The notes beneath the pieces were generated by a model, which worked only from the letters and a program-made list of their open reading frames with translations, was not told the origin of the DNA and searched no databases. From contig CM000435.1 in assembly GCA_000165345.1 (NCBI GenBank), forward strand, positions 960,001 through 1,024,000: a stretch of DNA of 64,000 bases, given 5' to 3'. Position numbers and translations under genes: made by a program. Of the stretch, positions 12,197 to 31,064 are shown one piece after another (position 1 is the first letter of the stretch; each line of letters begins with the position of its first letter).

Positions 12197-13981
12197 ATGG
12201 GAGGAAACAGCGGACCTCCTGAATGGTGTTATCTTAGCAAAGATGGTCAATGCGATGGAAGGGGTGGAACTTATGTTGATGTAATTGGAAATGGAGGTCG
12301 TATTGGAAATGGAATGGCAATGACTATGATTCCTAACAATGACAAAGATGTAACATTTAAATTAAACATGAAAAGCAAAGGGACTGTAGCTACTTTTAGT
12401 TGCAAGGGAGGAGTTTCTGAGTTAGTATTTTCTGGCAGCTCAGCGAGGTTTACAACTCCATCAATATCAGGATATAATCGATGCGCTGTAATTATTGGTC
12501 TGAGCGGAGATAGAATTCATGTTAGTCCTTTTGGCTCCAAAAACATCTCTTTAGGAAGTCTTCCAATGTCTCCAAATTCTTCCTTTAATGAGATTTATTG
12601 CGTACCAGAATATGCCAGATACGGGGCTATTCATTCTGGGTACAGTCCTTCCCCTCAAGTTGTTTCTACGCCAATATCACAGGGAATTACTAACGTTGAT
12701 AACTCTCTTTCGCTTCCTTCTACTACTACTACTACCACAACAACAACTACCACTACTACTACTACTACCACTGCACCTCCAAAGCTCATAGTTGAAGCAG
12801 AAAAATACGTTATTGTTCCGAGTATACAAAGTGCAACAGCATCTATTTCTTTTTCCATTAGCAAGTCTTTATTATCCTCATCATCTCTTACTGTTACTTT
12901 ATCAGATGTTGACTACCTAACACTTGCTAAAGTCAAGCTTAAATCTTGTTGTTTAGAGCTAACTTCAGATAATGAAGACCACTTTGATAAGATGACGTAT
13001 AATGCAGAAATGAAGAGTTCATCAACACTAAATCTCACACTAGCTTGGACTAAAGCATTCATATACTTGATTCTAGTCTCCAGTATGACTGTTTTAGCCT
13101 CAGTACCAAGGTTTGCAAATCTTAACACACCTGCAAATGCAGTCCTTGAAAATAACTCTGGAGCAGAGCTTACAACTACATGGAGGTATTCAAGTGAGTT
13201 CGAAGCCCCAAAGCTATCTTCATGTAATCTCATTAATTATGATAGCTCGTGTAAATCAGCATCAGTATCTATAATTTCTCCAGTTGAGTGGAAACCTGAT
13301 GTATCATTTTTAAGATATGGTTTTATCTCTCCAATAAGCAGTAATTACCCTATCTCCTTCTCCTTAACTTCCAGTGGTACCCTCTTCGCTTCTATTAACT
13401 TCAGTCAAACAGGTATTTCTATCTCAATACCATCTTCATCTCAAACTGCTTCAATGAGTTATATAAAAACTCCAAATCCTGGAGAATGGGTTTCTGGTGA
13501 TATCTTTCTATTAAGTCCCAAATTTTTTAATACTTTGGATAGAACTGAAAGTACTAAGACTTGTACTATCATTAAGTCTACTTGCACTGCACCATCTTCT
13601 TGGTCTTCCATCAAAAGTTCGGAATTAATTGCCAGATATGCAATATTGTCAAAGCTTATTTTGGATTCTGGAATAGAAGAAAGTGAAGAACAACCAAAAC
13701 TCTATGTTACTTATAAGGGAGTTTACGCACTAAGTATTAATGTTCCCAGTAAAGAACTGAATGGAGCAACAGTACAAGATAGTCCAACATACCAACCTCT
13801 AGTTTATTGGAGAGTATACAAAGGCCTTTCACCTTCTATTAGTTTTCCCTCCGATGAAATTTCTAAGGTTATTCAAAATGTTACAAACCCTGTAACTACT
13901 ACAACAACTCCTTTCACTACAACTACTACAAAGTCTACAAGCTCTGGATCATGGATGGATAGCTTTTTATCATGGTTTTAA
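12197..13981 (+). CDS. Thr/Ser-rich mucin-like protein (594 aa) with an internal hydrophobic helix
   Basis: ATG 12197. There is an 18-Thr run encoded by an (ACT/ACC/ACA)n microsatellite. A second T-rich block lies near the C-terminus (TTTTTPFTTTTTKSTSSGS). A hydrophobic segment AFIYLILVSSMTVLASV lies mid-protein. No N-terminal signal peptide is present in this exon. Confidence 0.55.
   Translation: MGGNSGPPEWCYLSKDGQCDGRGGTYVDVIGNGGRIGNGMAMTMIPNNDKDVTFKLNMKSKGTVATFSCKGGVSELVFSGSSARFTTPSISGYNRCAVIIGLSGDRIHVSPFGSKNISLGSLPMSPNSSFNEIYCVPEYARYGAIHSGYSPSPQVVSTPISQGITNVDNSLSLPSTTTTTTTTTTTTTTTTTAPPKLIVEAEKYVIVPSIQSATASISFSISKSLLSSSSLTVTLSDVDYLTLAKVKLKSCCLELTSDNEDHFDKMTYNAEMKSSSTLNLTLAWTKAFIYLILVSSMTVLASVPRFANLNTPANAVLENNSGAELTTTWRYSSEFEAPKLSSCNLINYDSSCKSASVSIISPVEWKPDVSFLRYGFISPISSNYPISFSLTSSGTLFASINFSQTGISISIPSSSQTASMSYIKTPNPGEWVSGDIFLLSPKFFNTLDRTESTKTCTIIKSTCTAPSSWSSIKSSELIARYAILSKLILDSGIEESEEQPKLYVTYKGVYALSINVPSKELNGATVQDSPTYQPLVYWRVYKGLSPSISFPSDEISKVIQNVTNPVTTTTTPFTTTTTKSTSSGSWMDSFLSWF
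12717..12772 (+). repeat. Coding trinucleotide microsatellite (ACT/ACC/ACA)n encoding poly-Thr
   Basis: Seen directly as actactactactaccacaacaacaactaccactactactactactaccact. Confidence 0.85.
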
Positions 13982-14509: not shown

Positions 14510-15736
14510 TATGGATCTCTTTTTGAAGGATCAAGAAATGATACAAACTATGAGAGCCAATTAGAAAAGTTTGAGGGGATTCAAAGACAAGAGGGATTCT
14601 CAGGAGAGAACCTAGATCAAGATAAAGACCCTATAATTAGTACAGTAAAGTTTTTCAATACCTTCAGATTTCCCTTAAATTTGAATCCTAATGGATTTAG
14701 GTTAGGCATGAGAATTAAATATGGTGCAAGTTCAAATCCAATTAAAATTATTTTCATAGGAAGGGACTTGAAGAATTTATTAAACATTATTATCAAGGAA
14801 TGTAAGATATATCTCTTTTCTAAAGACAATAAGAGTAGTGGCTTCTTTTACGATAGTTCTCCTTTATTTATATCAAAGAATAGCACAGAAGATCTCCAAT
14901 TGATAATGGATTGGACTGAAAATACATTCAGAGTTTCTGCAGTTAGACCTGATAACTCCCAGGTGGCTTTAGGGGGTATTGTAAAAACAGATTCTCCTTT
15001 GGTAGCTTTTGGATCTGCTTTTATAGGGGAAGCATTGAATCCACTTCAGATTGGATGGAGCTTCAAGAATATGCCTGCAAACTCTAGATTTGAATGTTTG
15101 ATTAGTTATTTTGAGGAGAGATGTAAAAGCAACTCAATTCAAATAACCAATATACTTTATGAGAGTTTTCCTGGGATAAAAGCAGATAGGGGTTTTCTTA
15201 AGGTTGCTTTCCAATTCCCTCCAAAGGAGAGGCTCCCTGTTACTTTAAGAATTATGGAAGATAAAGAATTAATAATGAGTATTCAATTTTCATTGGACCA
15301 GATGGTGATACATGAAGCTGGAAAATCCTTCAAGCATTTCTTCCTTAATAAATATCAAGAAGGGGAATGGTTAAATCTAGACTTGGTTCCTATTTCGAAT
15401 TTGAGTTTGAATTACTTAATTTTTATACTAAAAACTCTATGCTCTAAAAGGATTTTTGATCTGAAAAGCACAAGTAGTTGTTTAGAATCCAGTCAAGAAG
15501 GAAATAATCCGGCCAAAGAATACAGAAAGCATGATTCAAAAAAAGGGTCTTGCAAAAATGAGTTTCTTCAAAATATAGCAAGAAGTAGAAAGATTTTAGG
15601 CCGTGAATATGGCATTCCAGAAAGTCAACATTTTGACGCTTTTCATTCCGGTAATGGTTTCAAACTTTTATTTGCAATAGATGAAGAAATTATAGGTAAG
15701 TGTAAAAATTTAGTCTTTTCAACCAAAATAATTTGA
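14510..15736 (+). CDS. Hypothetical protein (about 408 aa). The start is moved to the first ATG of the open frame.
   Basis: The track ORF 14681..15736 begins at TTG. The same frame is open back to a TAG at 14504-06 and has an ATG at 14510 (MDLFLKDQEMIQT...). No recognisable domain. Confidence 0.4.
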   Translation, partial: YGSLFEGSRNDTNYESQLEKFEGIQRQEGFSGENLDQDKDPIISTVKFFNTFRFPLNLNPNGFRLGMRIKYGASSNPIKIIFIGRDLKNLLNIIIKECKIYLFSKDNKSSGFFYDSSPLFISKNSTEDLQLIMDWTENTFRVSAVRPDNSQVALGGIVKTDSPLVAFGSAFIGEALNPLQIGWSFKNMPANSRFECLISYFEERCKSNSIQITNILYESFPGIKADRGFLKVAFQFPPKERLPVTLRIMEDKELIMSIQFSLDQMVIHEAGKSFKHFFLNKYQEGEWLNLDLVPISNLSLNYLIFILKTLCSKRIFDLKSTSSCLESSQEGNNPAKEYRKHDSKKGSCKNEFLQNIARSRKILGREYGIPESQHFDAFHSGNGFKLLFAIDEEIIGKCKNLVFSTKII

Positions 15737-16092: not shown

Positions 16093-19000
16093 TTATACTT
16101 TTTTTTTCTTCATATGTTTTTTGAAGTATCTATTGATTCTTTTAAATAAGTTTAAGTCCTTATTCTTCTTTTCATTATTGATATCGGCTTTATCACCAGA
16201 ATCAATATTAAGTGATTTTGATGAAGAGTTTGATTTAAGATGATCTTTTGTTTGATTCCTTCTGAATTTGCTAAGAGAGATACCGGAAATACCTATTCTT
16301 CTTTTCTTTTTCTTACTTTTGTTAATTTTAGCTACCTTGAAGTTAGGAAGTTGGTTCAATAGTACATTGGTTTCATCAGAAATGGTGGATAAATAGTAAA
16401 TATACCAAGAAATTTTCAAGTAGTAAGGAAGCAGACTAATTCCAAAGATTTGAATATCTTTTTTTTCATGGGAAGAAATTTTGGCCTTGTAATTACTTGC
16501 CTCTCTGAGATATTCAGCTCTAATCTTATAATTATTCTTAATAATGCTTGGAACTGAGTATGGATCTTTGATAGTGACTAAAGTAAGAACTAGTTTAGAA
16601 AGAGTCCTTTTTATCTTTTGATATTCAATAATATCTAAATTCTTCTTGAGTAAGTCAGAAATTTTTCTAAACATTGGAATTACCATAAAGACATGGTTAT
16701 CCAGAAAAGATAAGATGGAATTAAAGATATTCTTTCTAATTTTGATCTCCATCAAAATTTTCTTGTTAACAGGTTGATCCCAACTATTAAAGAAACGAAG
16801 AATCTTAGGTTTATTGGACCTCCTTTCAATCTTCTTATCAACAAATTGAATAGTCTTTTCAAGCTTTAAGTCTTTTGTTTGTTTTAGTTCAAAAAAAGAT
16901 GTGATTAAATTAAAATTGTTTAGATAATTTAATATAATACTTATATCGGTCTTTAATTTTTCAATATCTTCGTTAATCCTAATTCGATCACAATTAACAA
17001 TTCCTCCAAAATAGTCGAATCCAAAGGTTTTGTCAATATCATGAGTTATTTTTTCGATTGGAATTAGTAATTCTTCACAAAGCTTGAATGCATACTCAAA
17101 ATGAGGTCCATTATTGATTTCTTTTGTTTCAGACGTATACTTTCTGATCATTTCCACAACACAATTTTCTTTGTATGTATAAATTAATTCATATACTAAT
17201 TTATCCATTGGTGAGAGATTAGAACCAACTTTTGTGATAAATTGTCTTTGAATCTTTGAAATTTCTTTATCTTTTAATATCTCAAGAATCCTTGACTGTA
17301 GTATCTTGTGAATATAAATTAGCTTAAAGCTTAGAGAATTCATTCCAAGTTCTTTTCCAAATTCAAAAATTATGTCTTTTTGTCCCTTGTTAGTAATCTT
17401 ATTAGTGAATTCTTGAATATTAATGGGATTAAATCCTCTTTCAATCAATTCTTGAAGATTCTTTTCTTTGAATAAAAGCTTGAAATGGTTTTCTTCTAAT
17501 TCATCTCCAACATTATCAAAGAGTTGTTTTGTGGCTTCATAAACTAATTTATAAAAACCTTTATTGGATAAAATGATATCAGGAATGTTTTGATAAATCT
17601 TAATTTCATCAGACTTGTCAATATTAATTCCAGAATTCAAGTTTAATATAACTTCTTTCAAATAATATGAAAGAATATGTGGGTCTATTGGAAGTCTGAA
17701 TTTGATAATAAATCCAGTTACAAAGTTAAATATTCCAAGTTCATTATTTAACTGATATAATTGATGTGTCATAAGCAATAAATAATCCTTAATCATATTC
17801 TTTGAGATGATTCCTTGGAAAATTCTGTTTAAGGCGAATTGGAGTCCATAAAATATAGTCACAAAATAAAGTTCATTCCTGGCATCGGAAAATTTAGAAA
17901 AGAAATGATTTTGACTCATTTCATTTAAATTAGACATCTTCTTATATGATATTTCATTGATAATTCCCACACAAAAAGAAAGGATGGCAGAATAAGATAA
18001 ATCCAAATGATTGTTAATTTGTTTATTTGTTTCAGAAATACAATCATTTAAAGAGATATATATACTGATTGGACCATTTTTATCAAGCTTGGAGATTAAA
18101 TTTTCTATATCAACTCCATTTTCAGCCATTTTAATATTTTGAAACTTATGCATGGAACTTGGAATCTTCTCTACAAGTCTAATATTAATTCCTAGAATTT
18201 GTTTAGTCAATCTTTCAATCATTTCATTCACAAAAGAATCAGAATCTTTCTCTATGTCCAATCCTCTAACTTGAATTTCTTGATTTAATGAGTCTCTGAG
18301 CTTTTTCAAAGTCCCTTTTCCGGGAGTTGTGACTGTCAAATTTATTCTATTTCGACCATCTCCTGGCCAAATATTTGAAAGAGGTTTTAATAGTTCTACT
18401 GGATATCCATAAGTGAATAGGAATTTCTTTATACGTTCTTCACCAGTTTCTCTAGTCCAACAGGAAATAAGTTCTCCAATGAAATCAATTAGTCCAAATC
18501 CAGAATTTGGTTCTTTGATATTTTTGTTAACAAGAATTTGATTGACACGTGGTTTGAAGTCGTTAATTATATCATAAAAGTTTGAAAAGTATTTCATATT
18601 TTTGAACAATTCTACCCATTCTTCAGATAACCTTTTAGTGTTCTCATCTAAATAAATTTCCCTTAGAGTCTCAAGATCATGATCAAAAACATATTCATAT
18701 TTGAGGAATGAGACAAGTCTTTTAAGAGGTTGAGGCCATTCATAAGACAACAATGTTGAAACTATTGATTGAATTAGTAATTTCTCACAAGATGAAAAGC
18801 TGATCTCATCCACTTCAGTACAAATACTCATGCAAATTTGATAATAGTGATCCAGTCTTTTTGATTCATCAGTAATTATATTTAATACAGAGGAAAAACA
18901 ATGAATATGATTAAAGTTGTTTAACAAACTAGATGGTTGAATATTAAAATAACCATAAGAGAGGAAAATAGCTCCAATGTGTTCTTGTCTTGGAGAAAGT

Positions 19001-22000
19001 ACCATTTTTCCTAATCTTCCCACATGAATAATTTCACTATTAAAGATCTTGACAGATTCTTGAAGATGATTATTAAATAATTTAAGAATGTTCTCAGGAT
19101 AACCTTCTTTTTTAGACAAAACTCTGTTAATATCTTCTATATTATCTTTATCTATCCTGAACTTTGAATTTTTGAAGGATTTATAAAAGTGAACTCTTGG
19201 TGTAAGTCTTAGGTCCAAATAATTACTTGTAGATAAAGCTTGGTAACCAGTAGTTTTAATAGGATCTTCTGATTCTAAGATATTGATAATTAAATCTGCT
19301 ATTTCTGAGATTGCTTGGTTTTTTTCTGAATCAATAAATGTTGCAGAGTTTATTGGAGAAGCTTCAATTAAGGCTGTAATGAGGTTATCTTTTGAAACAT
19401 TCATTTTATACCAATCAAAATGCTCTAAAAGATTCTCAGTAATATGCTCTACCTCAATGTTTCCAATTAGAATTCCCAAACTCAAAAAGATCTCCTGAAT
19501 AAAGAATTTGAGAAAGCTATGCATTAATTCACTTTTTTTTCTTTCATTTCTATTGACATTTGAAACAACATTATAGGCTACAATGAAAGGTACGTATTCA
19601 TGATTATAATTCCCAGAATCTGAATAACCTATGGCTTTCTTCATCTCTTTAGTGTTATTTTTAACTATATCCAGTATATTTGATTTTATGATCTTGTAGA
19701 AACTATCTCCTTTAAAGTGATCCAAATTCTCAGAAATCAAAGTCAGATCATTGATTTTAAACCTTTCAGAGATCCCTCCTAGTTGATTATTTTTTGTTAA
19801 TATACCTTCTGTGAAATAGTTTATTAAAGCTTGAACATCTTCTCCTAACTTGGTGTTTGGTTCTGTAGGAGCTAAGGAAACAGGACACAAGTTCTCAGAT
19901 TGGTTGAAAATGAGCAAAAATTTATTGGAGTGTTTGAGATTTGCTTTTAGATCTAAGATTTCCTGAATTTGATTTCCTTTAATAGTGTTCCAAATCCAAG
20001 AATTTCCTGTTTTATGATTAATATCAGATAAATGAATATAAGGATTTTTTCCTATAATATTCAAAATCTGATTTATAGTAAAACTAAGTCTTTTGGTTTC
20101 TTCATATTCCTTTTCTAATACAAATTGAACAAGCTTTCTTGAAAAGACTAAGGGATCAATGTTAGAACTAATCATAGTATTTCTAATAACCAAGAATGTT
20201 AATATAATTATACAGTTGGGATATTGTTCCAGAAGATTTAAATGGACCTCCAAATAATTTCTGATAAATTGAAATGTTTTAGAAAAATCGAAAAGAGGAC
20301 CAATAGCATATTTAACCTCAGAAATATCTGGAAGCAAAGCACCAAATGTGTTTTCTACCCAGAATTTAGGAAAGAGAGTATCAATTGCTCTACTCAACCT
20401 ATATGCAGGGAGAACTTGAACAATCTTTTCGTATTCGCCAGTGGATTCATCATAATTATTGATAAAAGACTGAATTTCTGTACAAACCCTGTCAAAATCA
20501 ACTATTTTTGGAATTTCAAGACCCTCAATTTGGCTGGAATTTAAATATAACTTTTCCAAGGAATTCTTGGAGATTTCAATACATTCTGGACCCAATAATC
20601 CGAGAATATTGACTGGGTTTAAGAATATACTTTCCTTCTCAATATTAATTGGATTCAATAACTCCTCCTCCAAAGTTGAGACAAAAGCTCCGTAAACTCC
20701 TTGTTCCGTCAGCCATGATTTTCTTCTAAAAAGTAAATTTCCCATTTTATTACAAATATTGTAAATACTAGCAGTATAAACATCCTTTTTGGGTCTATTA
20801 TAAAAAAAGAAGCTCCTGAATGATCGAATACAGCCCAAGAAATCAAAAAGATCCCCTTTTCTAAGACTCAATAGTCCATATTTCTCATTCAAATCATTGA
20901 TGAGATTGTTTTTAATTGGCTGACCAAGGAAATCCTCCGTCAAAAGAGGGGCCAGTCTATCAAGAGCACTTGGGAATCTATAATTTGGCTGTAAAATGTA
21001 ATCTCTTGATTCACTGATTAGTCTTTCAGAGTTAATATTTGGTATAAGTTGCCTCAAAAACATTTCTATATGAGAAAGATCATTAAAATTTTTTGGGTAT
21101 TCTGAAGTTTCACCATGGCTTAAAAAGTCGTTTCTTGTTTGATCAGAGTTTTGAATGATGTAACCATATGAACTTAAAAGCTCCTCAACTCTTTCAAAAC
21201 TAATACCTCCAAAACTACTGCTTCTTTCTTTCCCATCTACAGTATCAAATGAATGTTTAATGCAGGTCAAATATAAGACATCATTATCTTTCAGAGAAAA
21301 ATCATTAAATATGATATTTATGTTATTTCCAGTTAACTTAATTTCTTTACCATTTTTAGTAAAGAGGCTCTCAGGCTTAATGTAATTTCCAAAACTTTTT
21401 ACTAGTATACTCGAAACTTTGTTAGAATTCATAACATTTTGGAATCGAATAGTTTTGCTAATTGCAGGATTATCCTTCAAGATAATTAAGAGAGAAATCC
21501 ATTCTTTTTTGACTGATTTCTTGCTATTTAAAAGTATAAGAGAATTCTGAGCAAGTTTCTCAGCAGAATTGAATGTTTTGATTATTGGAGAAATGTTAAC
21601 ATAATGTCCTTTGATATTCTTTGCCTCATTTTTGTCAATAAAATACTTCTCATGAACGAGAATATCATACAAATCAATATTATTTTCTAAGATCATGTTC
21701 AAAACGTGGAATAATCCATATGTATGTTCAGACTTATTCTTAAAATTATGAGGAATGGTTGTTATCTTTGCTACATAGGATAATTTCTGTGACTTGGAAA
21801 CAATATTTAGTGTCTTAAAAGGTTCAACAATAAGATTCACCAAGATTTTGTCGTGATCTCTGATTTTATAGTCGGAAATAGGTGAGTTATATTTTTCAAG
21901 GTCATTCTGAATAATGTTTTGAACATTATCCAGTACCAATGCATTAGTCTTCTGTGTATCTCCAAGTATTTCAATAGAAACTACCTCAAACTTTTCAACC

Positions 22001-25000
22001 CCAAACTCATCTCTATTACTAAACATTTCATCCATTAGAGTAGCTTTAATTTCGGTAAATAAGTTTTTCAAAACCTCATTGGACGAAATTTGTATTTCTT
22101 TACTTATAAAGTTCTCTTTTTGGTTATCTTGATCATCTATGGAAGGTATAACTTCCAACAATGAGGGATTTCTCCAAATAAGACTCAAATTAAGCAATGA
22201 AACATTTTTCAACAATGTTACAAGTTCTACTTTATTTGAAGTTCCAATTCCATGTTTTGAAATGTTTTGATCTAAATCGTCTGACTGAGGGTCCAACATC
22301 TTCCCATTTGGAAACAGTACAAGTTTAATAATTCTGTCATTGAGATCCTTTTTTTTATACAACTCCTCGAGAAATTGTCTAAGAGGTGTATCTTTTATAC
22401 TAAACTGCAAACTTCCTTCTTTCCTTGTATTTGCATCCTTCCAAGAAACTTCAATATCAAAAACTTCAGGTTCCAATTCGCTCACTATTAGAGTAAGGAT
22501 ATCTCCATCATTTAAGCCAAGGGTCTCGGCTGAAATATCCATTTCATTTTCTTGGTCCACAAATAATGATGCTCGGGATTCTGTCTGAAAACCTTTGAAC
22601 ACTTCCTTTGTGAGGTCTAAGAGTCCTCTGTTAGCAAGAGTAGGGATAATTGAAATGATTGGTACATTTCTGAGGCCAACAGTTACTTTTGTAGAAATAC
22701 CTATAGGATGACTACGCGTAATTCGAAGGTTAATTGTATCTTTTTGGGTTTTTGAGACAGAATCAACGTTTTGGCGAATTAAGTTGACAAGTTTCCTATA
22801 GGATTTCTTTCTCGGATAGTTTTCAAAGAGAGTTCCCCATTCATCGCAGATTAAGTCGACACTTGTATCTATAGGAACTTGGAATTTATCAAATAATTCA
22901 TTGACTTTCTTAATACAGTCATCTTTTTCCATATGTTCTTCTGCAAAAAGCTTGAGGATGTTTTCTTTTAAACCTGGATGGTTTTGGAATGGTAGGTAAT
23001 AACCAGAATAATCTCCGAGCCAGTTAATAAAATCAAAATCCAACTTTTTAGTATTACCATCAAGTTTGTTACCAATGAAACCAGTAATCATTGCACTTTC
23101 CTTAAAGGGAATATTGTTCTCAGTTAACTTAGATATTAATTGGCCATAGTTAAAGCCGTATATTGGATTCAAAGATGAGATAATCTTTGAAGCTTTATCT
23201 TTTCCAATATTAGGATGCTTTTCCAGGATAAAAGTAAGGAGTCTTCTATATATTGATGAAGGATGTAGAGCCAAAGGTTTATCCACATATTCTAGTACAT
23301 AAATAGAAAAGGTTTCAGAAAGAGATTCTAGCTGGTCTTTTGGAATAAAGTCAGTCAAATTGGAATATCTCTCCACACATTCTATAAAGCTCTTTGATAG
23401 AATTGTTCTGTCCTCAATATCTTTAATGTATGGTATATTTGAGAAGATTACTTCCATACATTTTGGAGGCAAAGTATTACCAGTCATATCATAGTACGTT
23501 ACACTTATTGCATATTTGTTGATCTCTGATTGAATATAACTATAATCTCTGGCTAGATAGATTCCAATTAAACTGCAAAATAAGATTGGATCAGACTTAA
23601 GCAGAGAATACCTGGAGTTATTCCAGTTGAGCAAAAGAAATTCATCCACACAGTTCAAAAAGTTGAACATATTGTTTGAAGTATTTTTTGAATCCTTGGC
23701 TACCATATAAAAAGGAGATCCAAAGTACTTGACAATATTGGAACTTTTAATTCTAACATCTATGTTTTCAGAAGAACCACTGCAAATATACTTATTAGTA
23801 AACATAAGTTGTTCCTGAGTGTTTAATTGGTTACTATAACTTCCAGAAATTCCCATCAGAGAGAGAACATCACTAAAGGGAGTTACTATAACCTGTCCCT
23901 TTTTAATTTCATCATATCTTGCCATAATAGTTTCTTGAGATAAGAATGTTAGAGTATTCCTCAGAAAGGCTTTCAAGCCAACAATTGAAAAGGAGACAGC
24001 ATTCATTAGATATCCTCTTGGAACATCCCCAGCAAAGTAAAGCTGTAAAGTGGCATCGAAGATTTCTTTGGTTCCCATAATACTCTTTTGACCTCCTTTA
24101 GAATCTTCTCCTGGGCTGGAAGTCCTAAAAGAGATCATTGTTGGCTGGGTTGTTGGGATAAATTCTCTAAGAGGGTTAATTCTAGAGAATATCTGGGAAA
24201 TAAGGCTATTCTCATTGCAAATTAAACTAATATATTCTTGCTTAATCGGACTGGGGTTCACCATTCTGATGAAGGGAAACTCCGGTTTGTATTTATATCC
24301 TTTGCTTAAAAATGGTTCGTGGCTATTAAGAACTTCAAGGTGTCTCCTACACTCGTTAATATCAAATCCATCATTCATTATTTGCAAAAGAGAATAAGTC
24401 ACACTTCTACCAAAAGTTGAGGTATAAATAGCCTTTTCTGAGGAGCTTATATATGGGAAATAGTCAGAGCTTGTATTTTGAGAAAGCCAAATTAATACCA
24501 GAGAAACAAAAGATGCAGTGTTAATATCAAACAGTTCTATCAGGTCTTTATTTACTCCTCTGTAAATGAAATAACATGTTCCAAAGGCAACAGAAATTTC
24601 CATCTTTAACTTTCCATCTAGAAGGGATTCAATGCAACTGAATAATTTAAATCTGGAAAGCCTAAGCATAGAGTTTTTTTTAATCCCAAAATCCATCAGA
24701 GAAGTTTCAATCTGTGTTTTTAAAGCTTTTCTGGAGCTTACAAGCTCTGGGATCTGAGTTGGCTCATTCCTCTCCTCTGTTAATCTGAGACCTCTGTAAA
24801 GGAAGAAAAGTCTACAGAGAAGCTCAGACTTTTGCATTGGAATCAAATATAACTTTAGAAGAAGGTCACTCGCAAACTGGCATTCAGAAAAAGAATATTC
24901 TTCAATTTTGTCTTGAGTTTTTGGAAAGTTTGCATCCAAAACGTCGTTTTTGTTTCTATAACTACTATTTGACATTTCAGCATCTATTGATTGTTCTCTT

Positions 25001-25821
25001 TTTTCCATCTTATAAATTTCCTTAATCCTAATTTGACGAATTGAATCAAAAATATAAATAATTTCTGGTTCTAAACTCAACCTTGTAAAGCTTTTACCAG
25101 TTAACTGAGAAATACTAACTCCAAGTTGTTCTTGGATGGATTGATCAAAAGCCAAGAGGTCAAATATATGGCTCAAAAATACAGGACTTCTACCAAATGT
25201 GAGTCCAATATTGTAGCAAATCCTCAAAGCTGTGGATCTGTGGAATGTACTCACCTTTTTGTTATCTTGGTCCAAAAGAACCTCAATATTCATCTCCACA
25301 GATTCAACACAAGTCTCAACAGAAAAGCTCTTACTGCTACAAAGAAATGATTGGACTGTATTCACAATTTCAGAGGGTAATTGCAAATTTTGCAATACAC
25401 CAGTTATCTTGGAATTGCAATTTATGGGACAGCCTAACTTATCTTTTCCAGAAGAATAAGAATTCTTGATTTCATTCATCATTGAAATAAAATTGTTAGA
25501 GTCAAGAATATCCCCCATTATCTCTTGCTCTGAAATTGTCTCCAATTTCTTGTCATCCTCTTTATTTAATAAACTTATGTATCTCCCCTCTTTTGACCGA
25601 ATCCAAACCGAGATTTCTTGGATACAAGCTTCACTTATTTCATTAAAATCTCCCGAAGAGCAGGAAGAAAACTTTGGAAGATCATATCCTGGGTTATATT
25701 TTAAACATGACGCTACTATAGCAAATATTTCCCCACCAGGGTTAGCCTCTAGAAAATTTAAATGTATTGCAAAAGTAAGAAAAAATGACAGAATGCACCA
25801 CTTTGATAGTGGGAGAATCAT
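16093..25821 (-). CDS. Giant hypothetical protein (3242 aa), uninterrupted, with an N-terminal hydrophobic segment
   Basis: ATG at 25821..25819 on the minus strand. N-terminus MILPLSKWCILSFFLTFAIHLNFLEA. The 9.7-kb frame is open, which is far beyond chance in AT-rich DNA. I found no P-loop, HECT, RING or kinase motifs. The C-terminal tail is Lys/Arg-rich. The E2F-like box TAGGCGGGCTTTTGC lies about 115 nt upstream. Confidence 0.7.
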   Translation of the reverse strand: MILPLSKWCILSFFLTFAIHLNFLEANPGGEIFAIVASCLKYNPGYDLPKFSSCSSGDFNEISEACIQEISVWIRSKEGRYISLLNKEDDKKLETISEQEIMGDILDSNNFISMMNEIKNSYSSGKDKLGCPINCNSKITGVLQNLQLPSEIVNTVQSFLCSSKSFSVETCVESVEMNIEVLLDQDNKKVSTFHRSTALRICYNIGLTFGRSPVFLSHIFDLLAFDQSIQEQLGVSISQLTGKSFTRLSLEPEIIYIFDSIRQIRIKEIYKMEKREQSIDAEMSNSSYRNKNDVLDANFPKTQDKIEEYSFSECQFASDLLLKLYLIPMQKSELLCRLFFLYRGLRLTEERNEPTQIPELVSSRKALKTQIETSLMDFGIKKNSMLRLSRFKLFSCIESLLDGKLKMEISVAFGTCYFIYRGVNKDLIELFDINTASFVSLVLIWLSQNTSSDYFPYISSSEKAIYTSTFGRSVTYSLLQIMNDGFDINECRRHLEVLNSHEPFLSKGYKYKPEFPFIRMVNPSPIKQEYISLICNENSLISQIFSRINPLREFIPTTQPTMISFRTSSPGEDSKGGQKSIMGTKEIFDATLQLYFAGDVPRGYLMNAVSFSIVGLKAFLRNTLTFLSQETIMARYDEIKKGQVIVTPFSDVLSLMGISGSYSNQLNTQEQLMFTNKYICSGSSENIDVRIKSSNIVKYFGSPFYMVAKDSKNTSNNMFNFLNCVDEFLLLNWNNSRYSLLKSDPILFCSLIGIYLARDYSYIQSEINKYAISVTYYDMTGNTLPPKCMEVIFSNIPYIKDIEDRTILSKSFIECVERYSNLTDFIPKDQLESLSETFSIYVLEYVDKPLALHPSSIYRRLLTFILEKHPNIGKDKASKIISSLNPIYGFNYGQLISKLTENNIPFKESAMITGFIGNKLDGNTKKLDFDFINWLGDYSGYYLPFQNHPGLKENILKLFAEEHMEKDDCIKKVNELFDKFQVPIDTSVDLICDEWGTLFENYPRKKSYRKLVNLIRQNVDSVSKTQKDTINLRITRSHPIGISTKVTVGLRNVPIISIIPTLANRGLLDLTKEVFKGFQTESRASLFVDQENEMDISAETLGLNDGDILTLIVSELEPEVFDIEVSWKDANTRKEGSLQFSIKDTPLRQFLEELYKKKDLNDRIIKLVLFPNGKMLDPQSDDLDQNISKHGIGTSNKVELVTLLKNVSLLNLSLIWRNPSLLEVIPSIDDQDNQKENFISKEIQISSNEVLKNLFTEIKATLMDEMFSNRDEFGVEKFEVVSIEILGDTQKTNALVLDNVQNIIQNDLEKYNSPISDYKIRDHDKILVNLIVEPFKTLNIVSKSQKLSYVAKITTIPHNFKNKSEHTYGLFHVLNMILENNIDLYDILVHEKYFIDKNEAKNIKGHYVNISPIIKTFNSAEKLAQNSLILLNSKKSVKKEWISLLIILKDNPAISKTIRFQNVMNSNKVSSILVKSFGNYIKPESLFTKNGKEIKLTGNNINIIFNDFSLKDNDVLYLTCIKHSFDTVDGKERSSSFGGISFERVEELLSSYGYIIQNSDQTRNDFLSHGETSEYPKNFNDLSHIEMFLRQLIPNINSERLISESRDYILQPNYRFPSALDRLAPLLTEDFLGQPIKNNLINDLNEKYGLLSLRKGDLFDFLGCIRSFRSFFFYNRPKKDVYTASIYNICNKMGNLLFRRKSWLTEQGVYGAFVSTLEEELLNPINIEKESIFLNPVNILGLLGPECIEISKNSLEKLYLNSSQIEGLEIPKIVDFDRVCTEIQSFINNYDESTGEYEKIVQVLPAYRLSRAIDTLFPKFWVENTFGALLPDISEVKYAIGPLFDFSKTFQFIRNYLEVHLNLLEQYPNCIIILTFLVIRNTMISSNIDPLVFSRKLVQFVLEKEYEETKRLSFTINQILNIIGKNPYIHLSDINHKTGNSWIWNTIKGNQIQEILDLKANLKHSNKFLLIFNQSENLCPVSLAPTEPNTKLGEDVQALINYFTEGILTKNNQLGGISERFKINDLTLISENLDHFKGDSFYKIIKSNILDIVKNNTKEMKKAIGYSDSGNYNHEYVPFIVAYNVVSNVNRNERKKSELMHSFLKFFIQEIFLSLGILIGNIEVEHITENLLEHFDWYKMNVSKDNLITALIEASPINSATFIDSEKNQAISEIADLIINILESEDPIKTTGYQALSTSNYLDLRLTPRVHFYKSFKNSKFRIDKDNIEDINRVLSKKEGYPENILKLFNNHLQESVKIFNSEIIHVGRLGKMVLSPRQEHIGAIFLSYGYFNIQPSSLLNNFNHIHCFSSVLNIITDESKRLDHYYQICMSICTEVDEISFSSCEKLLIQSIVSTLLSYEWPQPLKRLVSFLKYEYVFDHDLETLREIYLDENTKRLSEEWVELFKNMKYFSNFYDIINDFKPRVNQILVNKNIKEPNSGFGLIDFIGELISCWTRETGEERIKKFLFTYGYPVELLKPLSNIWPGDGRNRINLTVTTPGKGTLKKLRDSLNQEIQVRGLDIEKDSDSFVNEMIERLTKQILGINIRLVEKIPSSMHKFQNIKMAENGVDIENLISKLDKNGPISIYISLNDCISETNKQINNHLDLSYSAILSFCVGIINEISYKKMSNLNEMSQNHFFSKFSDARNELYFVTIFYGLQFALNRIFQGIISKNMIKDYLLLMTHQLYQLNNELGIFNFVTGFIIKFRLPIDPHILSYYLKEVILNLNSGINIDKSDEIKIYQNIPDIILSNKGFYKLVYEATKQLFDNVGDELEENHFKLLFKEKNLQELIERGFNPINIQEFTNKITNKGQKDIIFEFGKELGMNSLSFKLIYIHKILQSRILEILKDKEISKIQRQFITKVGSNLSPMDKLVYELIYTYKENCVVEMIRKYTSETKEINNGPHFEYAFKLCEELLIPIEKITHDIDKTFGFDYFGGIVNCDRIRINEDIEKLKTDISIILNYLNNFNLITSFFELKQTKDLKLEKTIQFVDKKIERRSNKPKILRFFNSWDQPVNKKILMEIKIRKNIFNSILSFLDNHVFMVIPMFRKISDLLKKNLDIIEYQKIKRTLSKLVLTLVTIKDPYSVPSIIKNNYKIRAEYLREASNYKAKISSHEKKDIQIFGISLLPYYLKISWYIYYLSTISDETNVLLNQLPNFKVAKINKSKKKKRRIGISGISLSKFRRNQTKDHLKSNSSSKSLNIDSGDKADINNEKKNKDLNLFKRINRYFKKHMKKKKV

Positions 25822-26081
25822 TTCTGAGATTCTAATTCACCAATTCCCCAATTTATTACGAGATACACATTTACTCTTTTTGAATCGATTTTCCATAGTT
25901 TTCGACCAATTACATGCAATTTACGACGGAGATCTAGGCGGGCTTTTGCTCCGAATCTTTAAAAGCAGTAGTAAGGTGGGATTTTAACTAAATAGTCAAA
26001 TAAAATGAAGAAATTGATTAGTTAATTAAAAACTAAATTATTCTGGCTAGATATATTTGTTTATGACCTAAACAAGCTAAC

Positions 26082-29000
26082 TCATCTTAAGTTGGAGCTC
26101 CTGCTCTTTCTTGAGGATTGAAAGCTATTACTAATAGGCACTGGACCGCTCTTAATTGAGCTGAAATCATCAAGTTCAACCGCTTTAGCTTGTCTTCCAA
26201 AAATTTTTTCTTCTGAATTTTTCTTTATGGATTGGTTAGTGTCGTATAGGGCGTTAGTAAACTCATCAGGATTTCTTAGTGCTGGGTATTTAAGATCTTC
26301 AAAGATGTCCATAGAATCTGAGGCAGAGAATACCGCCCCCCATAGATCACTTCCAGTAGATCCATAGTGTTTTGCATGTAGGTTGAGTGAATTATCCATT
26401 ACATTGTAATCTGAGTAATTATCTTCATCATATGAGCTTACCTCTCCCTGTTGGCCCTTATCAAAGTTTTCTAGTAAATAAGGCTGAACTATATACTCTC
26501 TAGAAATGTGATCTTTCCCTCCTCTCATAACAACAGTCATAGAGGGAGAGCTGACTACTTTGATACATTTTGTGCATCTATCTTCAGCTAGATCGAATTT
26601 AAAAAGAACAGGAATCAACCCCTCTCCTTTTGATATTTCAACTCTACTATTGATTGACTTGAGAATAGCTCCTTCTGAAACATTCTTCTCACTCTTTTGT
26701 TTGGTTTGATTTTCGTTCACTTTTTCATTGAGCTCCTTTGCTACTTCACATACGAATGTCCAGCTCCAAATCGAGTTGTTCTTCAAACGAACCACTGAAT
26801 GCCACCACCCTGACTGAATTTCAACAACATGGGATTTCAATTCTGAAAGTTCTACAAGCTTTGGAGTAAAGAAATTCTTGTGTAATGTTTTCTCCAGATA
26901 TTCATTCCAAACAGGTACTTGTCCCCATTGGTATACTTCACCATTAGTTGTAAGAGCTAAGGCAAAGTTATATCCAAGAGATATTTGAGAGACTCTTGAA
27001 ATATTTGAAAGGATTTTAGGCCTTTTGGTACTATATACACCCTTCCCAAGGCCAAGAATTCCATTCTGAGCAACTCCAAAGACTGCAACAACTCCATTGA
27101 TTCCAATCATAAAAGTGGTTCCTAGTCCACAGCTTAGTGAATTAATTCTCCCCAGTTTTTTGATAGCTGGACTCCTGAGCTGCATTGGGATAAACAACGA
27201 ATCATGAACATCTTCCAACCCCAAATCATCCCCTCTACCCCAAACTAGAACCTCATTCTCAATCGTTACTGCTACACAATGGAATGCTCCTGCTCTTGCC
27301 AATGTAATCCTTGTTTGCTTCCAGTCAGCAGGCAGAGAAATTAAAGTTGGAGTTGAAATCTGATACTCTGTTGCATCACATCCACATTGACCATATTCAT
27401 TTGCTCCCCAACAGTAAACTGAACCCACTTCACTTAAGGCTAAGGTGTGATCTACTCCACATGAAATACTCTTAATCTTATTTTGAATATTCAAACTCTC
27501 TGCTGGCTTAATCAAAGCTCTTCCAAGAAGCTCGCTACCAGGCTTTCCAAGCCCTAATTGAGACTTATCATTCATTCCGAAAGAGTATAGGCTGCCTTCA
27601 CAAGTTAAGACAACTGTGTGGAACCCTCCAATGCCAACTTCTTGGATTGAACTTCCTGATCTAAGTAAACCCGTTATTGATTCCATCCATCCTGCTGGAT
27701 ACTCTCTACTGGTATCTACATCTACTAATATCTGAATTATTTGGAGTCCCTTTGGAGACTTCTCTAATTTGGAACCAATCACAACTCTATTCTTATTTCT
27801 TCTTTCTAAGTCCCATTGTACTAGTATCTGACATTCACTTTGAGTCATAAAGTCTGTTCTTACTTTCTCTGCCATTAGTAAAACAAATAGTTTTTCCTCT
27901 CGAATTATTTGTCTGACTCTATCTCCTCTCCACCAACTCTGAATACATTTTATGGATTTGAGCATATTCTTCCAATATAACCTAGTCAAAGCTGAGTGTA
28001 GACGTGGTTGGAGAACATCTGCCACCCAAAATAGTCTATCAAGGTGAGCCAAAATCCAATATCTTTTGATTAAACATTGAATTTTCATTACATACTCACT
28101 CTTCCAAAGCTTGATTCTGATCTTCTCAAAGAAGTGAGAATGTTGGATCGTCTTTCTGACATAATACCCTCTCCATACACTCTGAATCTTTCTTGCTGGT
28201 GTTGCTATACGAATATAATGAATCATGATTTGCCTTAAATAATAATATCTCCAAACTCTTTGGATTTTGATTGCCTTTGCTTGTTTAATAGAGTATATTC
28301 TCAAAAGAATGACTAATCTCTTCTTTTTATAATGAATCCAAGCACTCTGAAGCTTTTTTGCTGCTGCTTCCGATTTAATTCTACGGAGAATATCCAAAAA
28401 GGTATTCTTTGCTTTCAAAACATTCACCAAAAGCTTGACAAAAGATACAAACTTCTTACATGCAGCTTTCCTTCTTAAAGCTGTTCCTATCTCCTTTCTT
28501 ACTCTGTGTCCTCTATATATCCTTTGAATAGTTATGATTGTTCTATTATAATTTCTCATAGCATTTGGAAGGTTCATTATAAGTGAAACACCAACAAGGT
28601 AATTCAAAAGTCTATTCTTTGCTACTCCTTCTTTATTTAAGATATACATTCTCACTAGACTCTGACATCTAATCAAAGATACTGAAAATTCCTTTAATTG
28701 CTTTCTAAGTTTTGAAAGTCTAAATATCTCCCTCAAAGTTTCTGCCAATGGAGCTAAACTCTTTGTCACAGATCTAAAGAATCTTTCTACCGCTATCCAA
28801 CCATCTTTTTTGATAAAGATCTTCGTATTACCGATTTGCCATTCTGTTTCAGGTATCTTCATAGTATTCATTGCTTGCCTACATTGTTGTTTCAAATCTG
28901 ATCCCGAAGATATGGTTTGTCCCATCAATTTCATAATCATTGAATTCTCTTTCATAAAGTTTTCAAAAGTCTCTCTATATGCATATCCTTTTTGAACTAA

Positions 29001-31064
29001 TAATATTGCTTCCATAATTGATAGACTTTGAAGTTGATCAACTACCATATCAGCTTCAATTAGATTTGGTACCTTCTTTTCGTTTGCTTTGACACATCTA
29101 ATAAATTGAGCATTTGTAGCTTTTAATGTATCAAGTAGATGTCCTATAGAAACCCTAAAAATACTTGCAAGGAACTTCCCCTTAAGCTTATTAGAATTAA
29201 GAATTTCAACTTTCTCAAAACAACCTTTAATAATTGAATTCTTGGATTCTTTAAAAAGTTTGATAATTTCTGGCCTAATTCTATGTTTATTTTTCAGAAC
29301 AAACTCTCTGGTAGTGTACTCTACTGTAGTTGCTGTATGTTCAATGATGAATTTGTCTGGGACATTTCCTTTTGGAAGTTTATATCCACTTTTCTTTCCA
29401 CAATTCTTATGAGCACTATTAGTGAAACTCTCATAAGTACCATTTGATACTAAACAAGACTCTTCAAGTAAATCAAAGATACCTCCTTTACCATCAAATA
29501 GCTGAACAAGTGAGGAATTATCTTCATATGTGATATTATCATGAGAAATTGACTCTTTTTCATATTCTTGTAATTCTGCCTGAAAAACTGAAGAAATGAA
29601 GAATTGTTGTAGTTTTTCATTTGCAAAGTTAATTAGAAACTGCTCAAAACCATTAACTTTAAATACTTCAAAACCATAAATATCCAAAATTCCAATCCAT
29701 TGTCTTTTATTATCATCAAATTCAATTGCCTTATTAACTAGATCTATCAAGTACTCGAAACATTTTAAATAGACTTCCTTTCCACAACTTTCTATTTGTT
29801 CTTGTGCCTTGGCCTTATTTAATGCTGAAACAACGACGTTGCCTCTGATTTCAATACTACTTGTAAGTAAAAGCTCTTCAAATTGTTTAGAATCGATTCC
29901 CCAGAGTTCTGAGACATCCGATAATATACCTTGACTTTCAATACAAGCAGCATCTTCGATTCCTCTGGATTCGTGTTCTCCAAGTTCAAAGTTTCCCATT
30001 AGTAAAATAGCAGAAAATAGAGAGATGAGTTGATCAATTGCTTCTTGGTTTGGTAAGATTCTTTCCAACTGAGGAAATACACAATTTTTAAACTCTTTAA
30101 TGTCATCAATGTTTTGAACATCATAACAATTCGATACATTCAAATATTTATACCAGTCCATTCCACGTAATTTATATTTAGAAATGTCAGCTTGGGAAGT
30201 ATATGATTTAATTATTTGGTAGAAGATGTGATAAGATCTTTCATTTTCAATTTGGTGACCTATTCTACTGAGTTCCAACATATAACTTGAAATTGCACCT
30301 CCAACAATACCATTAGATCTTTCTAGACATAACTTGATAAATCTACCAAACCTACTGGAGTTATTATTCCTTAGTGTTTTTGCATTTCCTAAAGCTTCCA
30401 ATAGTGGGTTTGCTCCTAGGATGACTTCCTGGACCTTATTATCAGATCCCATTCCTGAAGAAGCAAAATAAGTCATGAGTTGTCTTGCAGTTTCAGTTTT
30501 TCCTGCTCCAGATTCTCCAGATACAATACATGACTGATTGATTTTTTGAGTATCCAGGAGCTGCATCGATCTCTGAGCAACAGCAAAAGTGTGAGGAGGA
30601 AGGTCACTTGGGAAGCCCATAGAATAATCAGCTCCTTTATAGAGTCTGATTTTTTCTGGACCATAGAGTCCTTCAATCATCTTAAAAGGGTTTACAGCAA
30701 CAAGTAATCTACCAGCATAAGAGTAGATTAAGTCCATACTGAATCTCTTGTTGATGACATCCAATACAGAGGCTTCACTCACGTGAGGTAATTTAGTTAG
30801 GTCATTGATTTGCATAGCATCAATTCCAACATTATAGTTAAAACACATATTAAAGTCAACATCTATTTCTCCTTCACCTTCAATACTAACATGTATAGTC
30901 TTTTCGCCAAAGCTTTTGATTATACCTACCTTATAATTGTGATTTATCCCATTTTCTGGACATTTAACCCAAACTGGAGTATCAATAAGAAGCTCATCAT
31001 TTCCTACCATGGAATACCTCCTTTTGAGCTCCATTTCCTTTTGAGGGTTATTTTTTTTAATCAT
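26082..31064 (-). CDS. Myosin heavy chain, apicomplexan class XIV MyoH-like: motor domain, multiple IQ motifs and C-terminal RCC1/ATS1 repeats (1660 aa)
   Basis: P-loop GESGAGKTE, switch region LDIYGFE and LEEA-like SH1 region. About 8 IQ motifs are present (IQRIYRGHRVRK, KLQSAWIHYKKKR, KIQRVWRYYYLRQ, KIQSVWRGYYVRK, IQSWWRGDRVRQ). The RCC1 blades are GGFHTVVLTCEGSLYSFG, CGVDHTLALSEVGSVYCWGANEYGQCG and AGAFHCVAVTIENEVLVWGRG. Confidence 0.85.
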   Translation of the reverse strand: MIKKNNPQKEMELKRRYSMVGNDELLIDTPVWVKCPENGINHNYKVGIIKSFGEKTIHVSIEGEGEIDVDFNMCFNYNVGIDAMQINDLTKLPHVSEASVLDVINKRFSMDLIYSYAGRLLVAVNPFKMIEGLYGPEKIRLYKGADYSMGFPSDLPPHTFAVAQRSMQLLDTQKINQSCIVSGESGAGKTETARQLMTYFASSGMGSDNKVQEVILGANPLLEALGNAKTLRNNNSSRFGRFIKLCLERSNGIVGGAISSYMLELSRIGHQIENERSYHIFYQIIKSYTSQADISKYKLRGMDWYKYLNVSNCYDVQNIDDIKEFKNCVFPQLERILPNQEAIDQLISLFSAILLMGNFELGEHESRGIEDAACIESQGILSDVSELWGIDSKQFEELLLTSSIEIRGNVVVSALNKAKAQEQIESCGKEVYLKCFEYLIDLVNKAIEFDDNKRQWIGILDIYGFEVFKVNGFEQFLINFANEKLQQFFISSVFQAELQEYEKESISHDNITYEDNSSLVQLFDGKGGIFDLLEESCLVSNGTYESFTNSAHKNCGKKSGYKLPKGNVPDKFIIEHTATTVEYTTREFVLKNKHRIRPEIIKLFKESKNSIIKGCFEKVEILNSNKLKGKFLASIFRVSIGHLLDTLKATNAQFIRCVKANEKKVPNLIEADMVVDQLQSLSIMEAILLVQKGYAYRETFENFMKENSMIMKLMGQTISSGSDLKQQCRQAMNTMKIPETEWQIGNTKIFIKKDGWIAVERFFRSVTKSLAPLAETLREIFRLSKLRKQLKEFSVSLIRCQSLVRMYILNKEGVAKNRLLNYLVGVSLIMNLPNAMRNYNRTIITIQRIYRGHRVRKEIGTALRRKAACKKFVSFVKLLVNVLKAKNTFLDILRRIKSEAAAKKLQSAWIHYKKKRLVILLRIYSIKQAKAIKIQRVWRYYYLRQIMIHYIRIATPARKIQSVWRGYYVRKTIQHSHFFEKIRIKLWKSEYVMKIQCLIKRYWILAHLDRLFWVADVLQPRLHSALTRLYWKNMLKSIKCIQSWWRGDRVRQIIREEKLFVLLMAEKVRTDFMTQSECQILVQWDLERRNKNRVVIGSKLEKSPKGLQIIQILVDVDTSREYPAGWMESITGLLRSGSSIQEVGIGGFHTVVLTCEGSLYSFGMNDKSQLGLGKPGSELLGRALIKPAESLNIQNKIKSISCGVDHTLALSEVGSVYCWGANEYGQCGCDATEYQISTPTLISLPADWKQTRITLARAGAFHCVAVTIENEVLVWGRGDDLGLEDVHDSLFIPMQLRSPAIKKLGRINSLSCGLGTTFMIGINGVVAVFGVAQNGILGLGKGVYSTKRPKILSNISRVSQISLGYNFALALTTNGEVYQWGQVPVWNEYLEKTLHKNFFTPKLVELSELKSHVVEIQSGWWHSVVRLKNNSIWSWTFVCEVAKELNEKVNENQTKQKSEKNVSEGAILKSINSRVEISKGEGLIPVLFKFDLAEDRCTKCIKVVSSPSMTVVMRGGKDHISREYIVQPYLLENFDKGQQGEVSSYDEDNYSDYNVMDNSLNLHAKHYGSTGSDLWGAVFSASDSMDIFEDLKYPALRNPDEFTNALYDTNQSIKKNSEEKIFGRQAKAVELDDFSSIKSGPVPISNSFQSSRKSRSSNLR

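Follow-up and report, generated by a model that had tools for sequence, protein, structure and literature searches.

What role should be assigned to a gene that encodes more than three thousand residues and resembles no known protein family? The question is raised by a 9.7-kb open reading frame (ORF) in a 64,000-nucleotide stretch of Cryptosporidium parvum DNA (GenBank assembly GCA_000165345.1, contig CM000435.1, positions 960,001 to 1,024,000 of the forward strand; hereafter the window), which corresponds to the gene cgd7_4340. Cryptosporidium is a leading cause of childhood diarrhoea, and how its unusual epicellular niche comes to be built is still to be explained; secreted proteins, for the most part orphans, make up the layers of its interface with the host cell (dense band, ring and feeder organelle). 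The product of cgd7_4340 would be a new and unusually large addition to these interface-building orphans, a known class, and the reading favoured here, at a probability of roughly 0.45, is that of a secretory-granule scaffold of the host-parasite interface made at the time of merozoite formation. An earlier reading of the DNA letters (the sequence-only reading) had suggested a membrane-anchored lipid-transfer protein, an idea that can be dropped; the gene is an ordinary one in that it is annotated and explained as that of a secretory protein.

The frame runs from ATG to stop over 3242 codons on the minus strand (window positions 16093-25821; ORF list and translation), a strand that the sequence-only reading had not named. 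At the local base composition (27-35% G+C, about 30%) roughly one random codon in twelve (~8%, an estimate) is a stop, so that a frame of this length cannot be attributed to chance, and its translation is 100% identical to the C. parvum Iowa II protein XP_628588.1/EAK90415.1 (also CPATCC_003649), which carries the database name "very large secreted protein, signal peptide". The frame is real, as had been claimed, and belongs to an already annotated gene. The identifier is cgd7_4340 because the quantitative PCR (qPCR) primers published for that gene (PMC3305300 supplement) map inside the frame, the reverse primer matching exactly at 25417-25438 and the forward primer at 25524-25545 save for one T missing from the published table. 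The alternative identifier cgd7_4270, obtained by linear extrapolation from XP numbers, was rejected; it denotes a phosphoglycerate mutase. The start codon is supported by the orthologues, all 12 of which start at the matching alignment column and open with a signal peptide, and by the qPCR amplicon, which covers codons ~93-135. The protein is rich in Leu (11.1%), Ile (10.9%), Ser (9.1%), Lys (8.7%) and Asn (8.1%), much as first described. Two short motifs that may be there by chance, CCCGCC (E2F-like) and TGCATG (AP2-type core), lie ~95-120 nt before the start codon.

The only strongly hydrophobic segment of the protein (mean Kyte-Doolittle hydropathy >1.8) comprises amino acids (aa) 1-24, with K7 before the hydrophobic core and E25 and E31 after it. 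In all 12 orthologues there is an N-terminal hydrophobic leader flanked by a basic residue on its N-side and acidic residues on its C-side, and in C. muris the hydrophobic core counts only ~11 residues and is therefore too short for a stable membrane anchor. Of the signal anchor proposed earlier, the targeting sequence stands and the anchor probably does not: the leader behaves as one of the cleavable type, with cleavage probably after Ala26 as judged from its sequence. Other hydrophobic peaks (aa 427-445, 1870-1888 and 2102-2120) were rejected as membrane spans on account of their charged or polar residues and scores of at most 1.66; the aromatic segment aa 3124-3159 has a mean hydropathy of ~0.9 (hand calculation). 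The mature product would weigh 372 kDa and be soluble, either in the lumen or outside the cell, and cgd7_4340 has a signal peptide for the endoplasmic reticulum (ER) and no transmembrane domain, as do the dense-granule (DG) and small-granule (SG) interface proteins of Cryptosporidium.

The cysteines are consistent with this topology. As many as 33 of the 39 are invariant across 12 species, as compared with 11.4% of all positions, and twelve of the invariant ones fall in the region that follows the signal peptide (residues 39, 131, 135, 161, 171, 202, 314, 336, 396, 416, 491 and 535). They are scattered, no CxxC motif occurs in the protein, and such an invariant pattern is what would be expected of disulfides formed in the secretory pathway. 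N-glycosylation sequons number 19 against 34 expected and none is conserved, a count that is not diagnostic.

Full-length collinear orthologues were found in 12 Cryptosporidium species or lineages. Three word-index searches (one with a 12-sequence profile) returned only seven close relatives, all of them full-length orthologues from intestinal species (97-50% identity); since they missed even C. muris and C. xiaoi, which were present in the query alignment, these searches cannot serve to test for remote kinship, with Plasmodium Cap380 for instance. The N-terminal third (aa 1-1150), used as a profile in an exhaustive HMMER search of 1.84 billion (1,835,955,588) representative proteins, added C. 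xiaoi/C. bovis (40% identity) and C. muris/C. andersoni (28%) and gave no match outside Cryptosporidium. As far as these comparisons reach, the family is restricted to the genus. A 100-aa metagenome fragment from ENA (P0024), returned by the HMMER search as well and ~50% identical to aa 345-444 of the C. xiaoi/C. bovis orthologues and ~29% to C. parvum, probably comes from an unsequenced Cryptosporidium species.

The orthologues measure 3153-3263 aa and are collinear with very few indels; the whole length of the protein must therefore be folded and constrained, and the gene is under purifying selection over its entire length. Conservation peaks at aa 541-960 and aa 2221-2400 in a sliding window, and aa 541-660 show 62-85% identity to C. 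felis. This full-length conservation across the genus, gastric species included, amounts to a stronger constraint than is generally expected of a fast-evolving secreted effector. With 3242 aa, the C. parvum protein is the second longest among the searched representatives that match the N-terminal profile of the family. In a population-genomic study cgd7_4340 is among the secreted-protein genes with single-nucleotide polymorphisms (SNPs) in all human isolates.

No enzymatic signature was detected. Walker A, HExxH and GxSxG motifs are absent from the protein, and hmmscan against Pfam-A with cgd7_4340 and 12 orthologues (E<=1) yielded no significant family, only scattered and inconsistent sub-threshold matches, which agrees with the original description of a protein devoid of recognisable catalytic motifs. 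A repeat family had likewise not been noticed, and self-BLAST of the protein gave no internal repeats. Searches of PDB sequences (E<=10) produced nothing useful, whether the query was the protein alone or an 8-sequence profile, and the profile matched no chain at all.

Structure prediction with AlphaFold2 covered aa 480-1679 and aa 2043-3242 and used 8-sequence alignments lacking C. xiaoi, C. bovis, C. muris and C. andersoni, so these were shallower than possible. By DSSP, the low-confidence models assign 56% helix and 0% strand to aa 480-1025 and 68% helix and 0.8% strand to aa 2043-3242; within the modelled regions strands are predicted in aa 1026-1528 only (19% strand). The extended beta-groove that the sequence-only reading had proposed to look for is not seen, the prediction being helical with <1% strand outside that central stretch (mean predicted local distance difference test, pLDDT, 37-49). 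Comparison of both models with the PDB by Foldseek gave no match at E<=0.001, the best being generic alpha-solenoids with a TM-score of ~0.1.

The central stretch divides into five blocks, each 70-130 residues long. Such blocks of ubiquitin-like size had been noted in the letters and, for two of them, the description holds at the level of homology: profile comparison identifies at least two putative ubiquitin-like (beta-grasp) modules, here called U1 (aa ~1030-1115) and U5 (aa ~1454-1524). A 12-sequence profile of U1 aligned by hhalign with a 9-sequence ubiquitin-family seed (probability 88%, E 2.8e-6) over 71 columns that correspond in register to ubiquitin residues 3-73, including the conserved "G-D-x-L-x-L-I-V" C-terminal strand region, and U5 aligned with U1 (probability 88%, E 3.3e-6, 60 columns); earlier comparisons with 8-sequence profiles had been too weak to call ubiquitin-like domains. 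In UniRef, independently, the orthologues of C. hominis, C. xiaoi and C. muris bear the name "Ubiquitin-like domain-containing protein", which suggests a PROSITE-type profile match. The AlphaFold2 model shows beta-beta-alpha-beta-beta patterns in aa 1029-1520 at a pLDDT of only 25-47, and the Foldseek matches to small beta-grasp-type domains (Rgl2 RBD, USP7 UBL) are all at E>1. Unlike typical ubiquitin-like domains, U1 and U5 lie below Pfam detection (no ubiquitin-clan match for the five isolated blocks at E<=10 or for 12 orthologues at E<=1), are predicted only, with model pLDDT <50, and would reside within a secretory protein, which is uncommon for such domains in eukaryotes. They are not conjugatable modifiers since they are without a C-terminal Gly-Gly.

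The protein ends, as the sequence-only reading had stated, in a basic tail (34% K+R over the last 82 residues, isoelectric point 10.9), which is basic in all 12 orthologues and variable in sequence and length. The last conserved core motif is followed by a variable basic linker and then by a short helix, whose 18-mer DLNLFKRINRYFKKHMKK (aa 3222-3239) reaches a helical hydrophobic moment of 0.68, above that of every other 18-residue window in the protein (3225 windows in all; mean 0.25, standard deviation 0.12). In five species the equivalent helix is the top-ranking one, and in C. andersoni, C. muris and C. canis it holds ranks 9-22. A role as a peripheral membrane-binding element is predicted because the helix has the highest moment in the protein and is cationic and conserved in kind. 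A precedent exists in Toxoplasma, where dense-granule proteins such as GRA2 are secreted in soluble form and then become peripheral on vacuole membranes by means of amphipathic alpha-helices; the putative terminal helix of cgd7_4340 would be comparable, although the two proteins lack homology and differ more than ten-fold in size. An ER-retrieval signal of the KKXX/KXKXX type at the C-terminus was rejected, the pattern not being conserved (the last residues are NNIN in C. felis and IKKS in C. xiaoi) and such a signal needing a cytosolic tail that adjoins the membrane.

The time at which the gene is transcribed was taken from a published qPCR series over a 72-h course of infection in HCT-8 cells (Mauzy et al., 2012; PMC3305300 supplement), which was read anew. 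The cgd7_4340 transcript is at 0 at both 2 h and 6 h. Its maximum, 1.8-3.8e-6 relative to 18S, comes at 12 h; expression then persists to 48 h and is down to 6-8e-8 at 72 h, ~20-fold lower. The profiles of DG5 (cgd7_4490), a validated dense-granule gene, and of cgd7_4500 have the same shape, the gene assignments having been verified by primer mapping, and cgd7_4340 is transcribed, like validated dense-granule genes, during merozoite formation. In the same series microneme genes peak at 12 h and oocyst-wall (COWP) genes spike at 48-72 h (PMC3305300).

Evidence that the protein exists and co-purifies with a granule protein comes from work on DG8 published in PLoS Pathogens in 2026 (PMC13241007). 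[quoted passage not shown] At the vacuole membrane and host-parasite interface a ring is made up by DG8 and SG4, which associate with membranes and have no transmembrane domains. The supplement of a 2026 rhoptry preprint does not list cgd7_4340.

Along with DG8 (cgd8_5300), SG4 (cgd6_3920), DG3 (cgd1_590) and DG5 (cgd7_4490), cgd7_4340 displays a signal peptide, no transmembrane or known domain, restriction to the genus, and transcription that is on at 12 h, in addition to its co-purification with DG8. Its C-terminal amphipathic helix, if correctly predicted, would allow the same mode of membrane association as in DG8 and SG4. The group is a functional class and not a homology family, and cgd7_4340 differs from it by its putative ubiquitin-like modules and its size (3242 aa as compared with 1633 aa in DG5, the only one measured).

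According to the scaffold reading, synthesis of the protein would coincide with the assembly of merozoites; it would be loaded into dense or small granules and, once released to the host-parasite interface, act there as a large scaffold. A non-enzymatic role is proposed because no Pfam family, PDB relative or catalytic motif was found, 56-68% helix is predicted and the modules U1 and U5 are present. Long helical arms stabilised by disulfides would give the protein reach, the ubiquitin-like modules may serve as docking sites for other proteins, and the cationic helix at the end could hold the complex peripherally on an acidic membrane. If cgd7_4340 is indeed the scaffold or membrane tether of the DG8-SG4 layer, it becomes a candidate to explain how this layer holds together, and also a genus-specific target or antigen.

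A number of points weigh against this reading. The transcript is very low, ~1e-6 of 18S rRNA (PMC3305300). The pull-down list includes myosin and ribosomal proteins, so some of its members are background; cgd7_4340 does not occur in the second (GFP-DG8-C) pull-down sheet, its identifier appearing once in the supplementary file (PMC13241007); and co-purification with DG8 could take place inside the secretory pathway and not at the interface. A microscopy or spatial-proteomics assignment of cgd7_4340 itself was not retrieved. On the structural side, mean pLDDT is 36.6 for aa 480-1679 and 48.9 for aa 2043-3242, and the helical-scaffold picture therefore rests on trends in secondary structure and not on a fold. 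Statistically, a likeness to ubiquitin holds for only two of the five central blocks, the third being marginal and the second and fourth not significant by hhalign, and in C. felis, C. xiaoi and C. bovis the amphipathic helix stands out less (rank 46-169).

The alternative that survives best, though unlikely, is that the protein resides in the lumen of the secretory pathway (ER, Golgi or granule matrix), is not exported to the host interface and takes part in folding, sorting or packing granule cargo such as DG8. The signal peptide, the invariant cysteines and the expression during merogony fit it equally well, the co-purification would also be expected if both proteins met inside granules, and some orthologues end in K-rich sequence. 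Against it, cgd7_4340 has no KDEL/HDEL-type retrieval signal, the dilysine-like patterns at the end are not conserved, and 372 kDa together with a terminal membrane-binding helix would be atypical of a chaperone.

Somewhat less probable is a microneme or rhoptry protein that participates in attachment or invasion as an adhesin or invasion scaffold. Its appeal lies in the 12-h peak of microneme genes and in the shape of the cgd7_4340 profile (off at 2-6 h, peak at 12 h), which is common to the neighbouring gene AGP2, cgd7_4330 (PMC3305300). Pfam nevertheless detects no adhesive domains (TSP, EGF, Apple, mucin), the N-glycosylation sequons are depleted and unconserved, there are no Ser/Thr mucin runs, and the sole partner data point to dense- and small-granule proteins.

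An oocyst wall or capsule protein, the counterpart of Plasmodium Cap380, is improbable and ranks a little lower still. Cap380, of which the oocyst capsule is formed, is a protein of ~380 kDa with a signal peptide and no transmembrane domain, and the two apicomplexan proteins match closely in size (372 kDa for mature cgd7_4340) and share an ER signal peptide and the lack of a transmembrane or recognisable enzymatic domain; UniRef moreover gives the C. andersoni orthologue the name "Oocyst capsule protein", an unexplained name and, as regards homology, the only link. Against it, no Plasmodium protein reached E<=0.001 among the 1.84 billion representatives when the aa 1-1150 profile was searched with HMMER, and no paper linking Cap380 to Cryptosporidium was found. 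HCT-8 cultures complete oocyst formation inefficiently, a caveat on any argument from timing. With that said, the cgd7_4340 transcript is highest at 12-36 h and falls ~20-fold at 72 h, when the oocyst-wall genes are at their spike (48-72 h; PMC3305300), which places its expression in asexual merogony and not in late sexual or oocyst stages, and the protein was recovered from infected HCT-8 cultures together with DG8, a builder of the trophozoite interface (PMC13241007). A wider version, which is a long shot, would have cgd7_4340 and Cap380 represent an ancient apicomplexan class of ~380-kDa secreted "envelope-building" scaffolds; their common architecture would be a signal peptide, disulfide-stabilised helical arms, an extracellular ubiquitin-like array and a terminal membrane-binding helix, and Cryptosporidium would have redeployed the scaffold from cyst-wall construction to the host-parasite interface. 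In a variant of this long shot the ubiquitin-like modules would engage host ubiquitin-binding machinery after export.

The ER-anchored bridge-like lipid-transfer protein (BLTP1/Csf1- or BLTP2/Hobbit-like, with a cytosolic beta-groove that carries lipids), labelled as speculation when it was put forward, is very improbable: ~3200 aa, a single N-terminal hydrophobic segment and no enzymatic motifs make a superficial likeness, whereas the Chorein_N, Fmp27/Apt1, BLTP, VPS13 and ATG2 families of Pfam are unmatched at E<=1 in 12 orthologues, the low-confidence models contain <1% strand outside aa 1026-1528, the charge distribution and short hydrophobic core indicate a cleaved signal peptide and a body that would be lumenal or extracellular (cytosolic in BLTP1/Csf1, BLTP2/Hobbit, VPS13 and ATG2), the scattered cysteines are invariant in the genus, the family, as searched with aa 1-1150, occurs in one genus while bridge-like lipid-transfer proteins are pan-eukaryotic, and the protein co-purifies with the secreted dense-granule protein DG8.

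The features of cgd7_4340 and the neighbouring genes are collected in Table 1.

Table 1. Features of cgd7_4340 and genes that surround it in the window (positions count from the first nucleotide of the window).
Feature	Position	Strand	Description and basis
cgd7_4340 coding sequence	16093..25821	-	Complete, single exon, 3242 aa + stop, mature product ~372 kDa; ORF list, identity to XP_628588.1, primers, collinear with 11 orthologues
Signal peptide	25744..25821	-	aa 1-26 (MILPLSKWCILSFFLTFAIHLNFLEA), probable cleavage after Ala26; hydropathy, charge pattern, orthologues
N-terminal region	24202..25743	-	aa 27-540, 12 genus-invariant cysteines; cysteine alignment
Published qPCR amplicon	25417..25545	-	codons ~93-135; primer mapping
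Most conserved block	22747..24201	-	aa 541-1025, predicted helical from ~aa 745; sliding-window conservation, AlphaFold2
Central mixed alpha/beta array	21238..22746	-	aa 1026-1528, five blocks of ubiquitin-like size; AlphaFold2 strands, hhalign, UniRef names
Putative ubiquitin-like module U1	22477..22734	-	aa ~1030-1115; hhalign
Putative ubiquitin-like module U5	21250..21462	-	aa ~1454-1524; hhalign
C-terminal body	16342..21237	-	aa 1529-3160, predicted almost all alpha-helical (solenoid-like), conservation peak aa 2221-2400; AlphaFold2 of aa 2043-3242, conservation
Basic C-terminal tail	16096..16341	-	aa 3161-3242, 34% K+R, isoelectric point 10.9; composition
Predicted terminal cationic amphipathic helix	16105..16164	-	aa ~3220-3239; hydrophobic moment, AlphaFold2 helix
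Upstream intergenic region	25822..26081	-	260 bp, between the stop of myosin gene cgd7_4350 and the cgd7_4340 ATG
cgd7_4280	primer near 976		Uncharacterized
cgd7_4290	2078-3643		MFS transporter
cgd7_4300	4106-4993		C2H2 zinc-finger protein according to PMC12246861; no Pfam match here at E<=1e-5
cgd7_4310	5396-10399	+	1667 aa, four CAP/cysteine-rich secretory protein domains (Pfam E 1.6e-50), an unusual tandem
cgd7_4320	10959-11993	+	No Pfam match
cgd7_4330	12197-13981	+	Apical glycoprotein AGP2, 594 aa, primer match at 12494; no Pfam match
351-aa ORF	14681-15736	+	Between AGP2 and cgd7_4340; no Pfam match
cgd7_4350	26082-31064	-	Myosin motor fused to IQ and RCC1-repeat domains
cgd7_4380	33702-34313		Rab GTPase
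cgd7_4390	34659-35582		NudC
cgd7_4420	38933-41413		Metallophosphoesterase
cgd7_4440	42455-43360		GT2 glycosyltransferase
cgd7_4470	46559-47920		CDC14 phosphatase
cgd7_4480	47994-49151		RRM protein
cgd7_4490	49802-54703	-	DG5 dense-granule protein (named in PMC13241007), 1633 aa; no Pfam family
cgd7_4500	56367-58883	+	Uncharacterized secreted protein, 838 aa; no Pfam match
cgd7_4510	59069-63847	-	ABC transporter, 1592 aa, two ABC_tran and two ABC_membrane domains

The primers published for the neighbouring genes (PMC3305300) map in order along the window, and the products were assigned with Pfam. As the chromosome is that of a eukaryote, compact and largely intron-free, the neighbours do not make up an operon and carry little functional information. 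The published size of AGP2 is 64 kDa, and the 351-aa ORF between it and cgd7_4340 is probably cgd7_4333, an AGP2 paralogue. On the other side, the transcript of the myosin gene cgd7_4350 spikes at 12 h at a level ~1000-fold above that of cgd7_4340 (PMC3305300). At least two large orphan secretory genes, cgd7_4340 and cgd7_4490, are carried by the window, and cgd7_4500 is listed with cgd7_4340 in the population-genomic study as an uncharacterized secreted-protein gene with SNPs in all human C. parvum isolates. The last gene, cgd7_4510, adjoins the published multidrug-resistance gene cgd7_4520 (CpMRP1), which lies past the end of the window.

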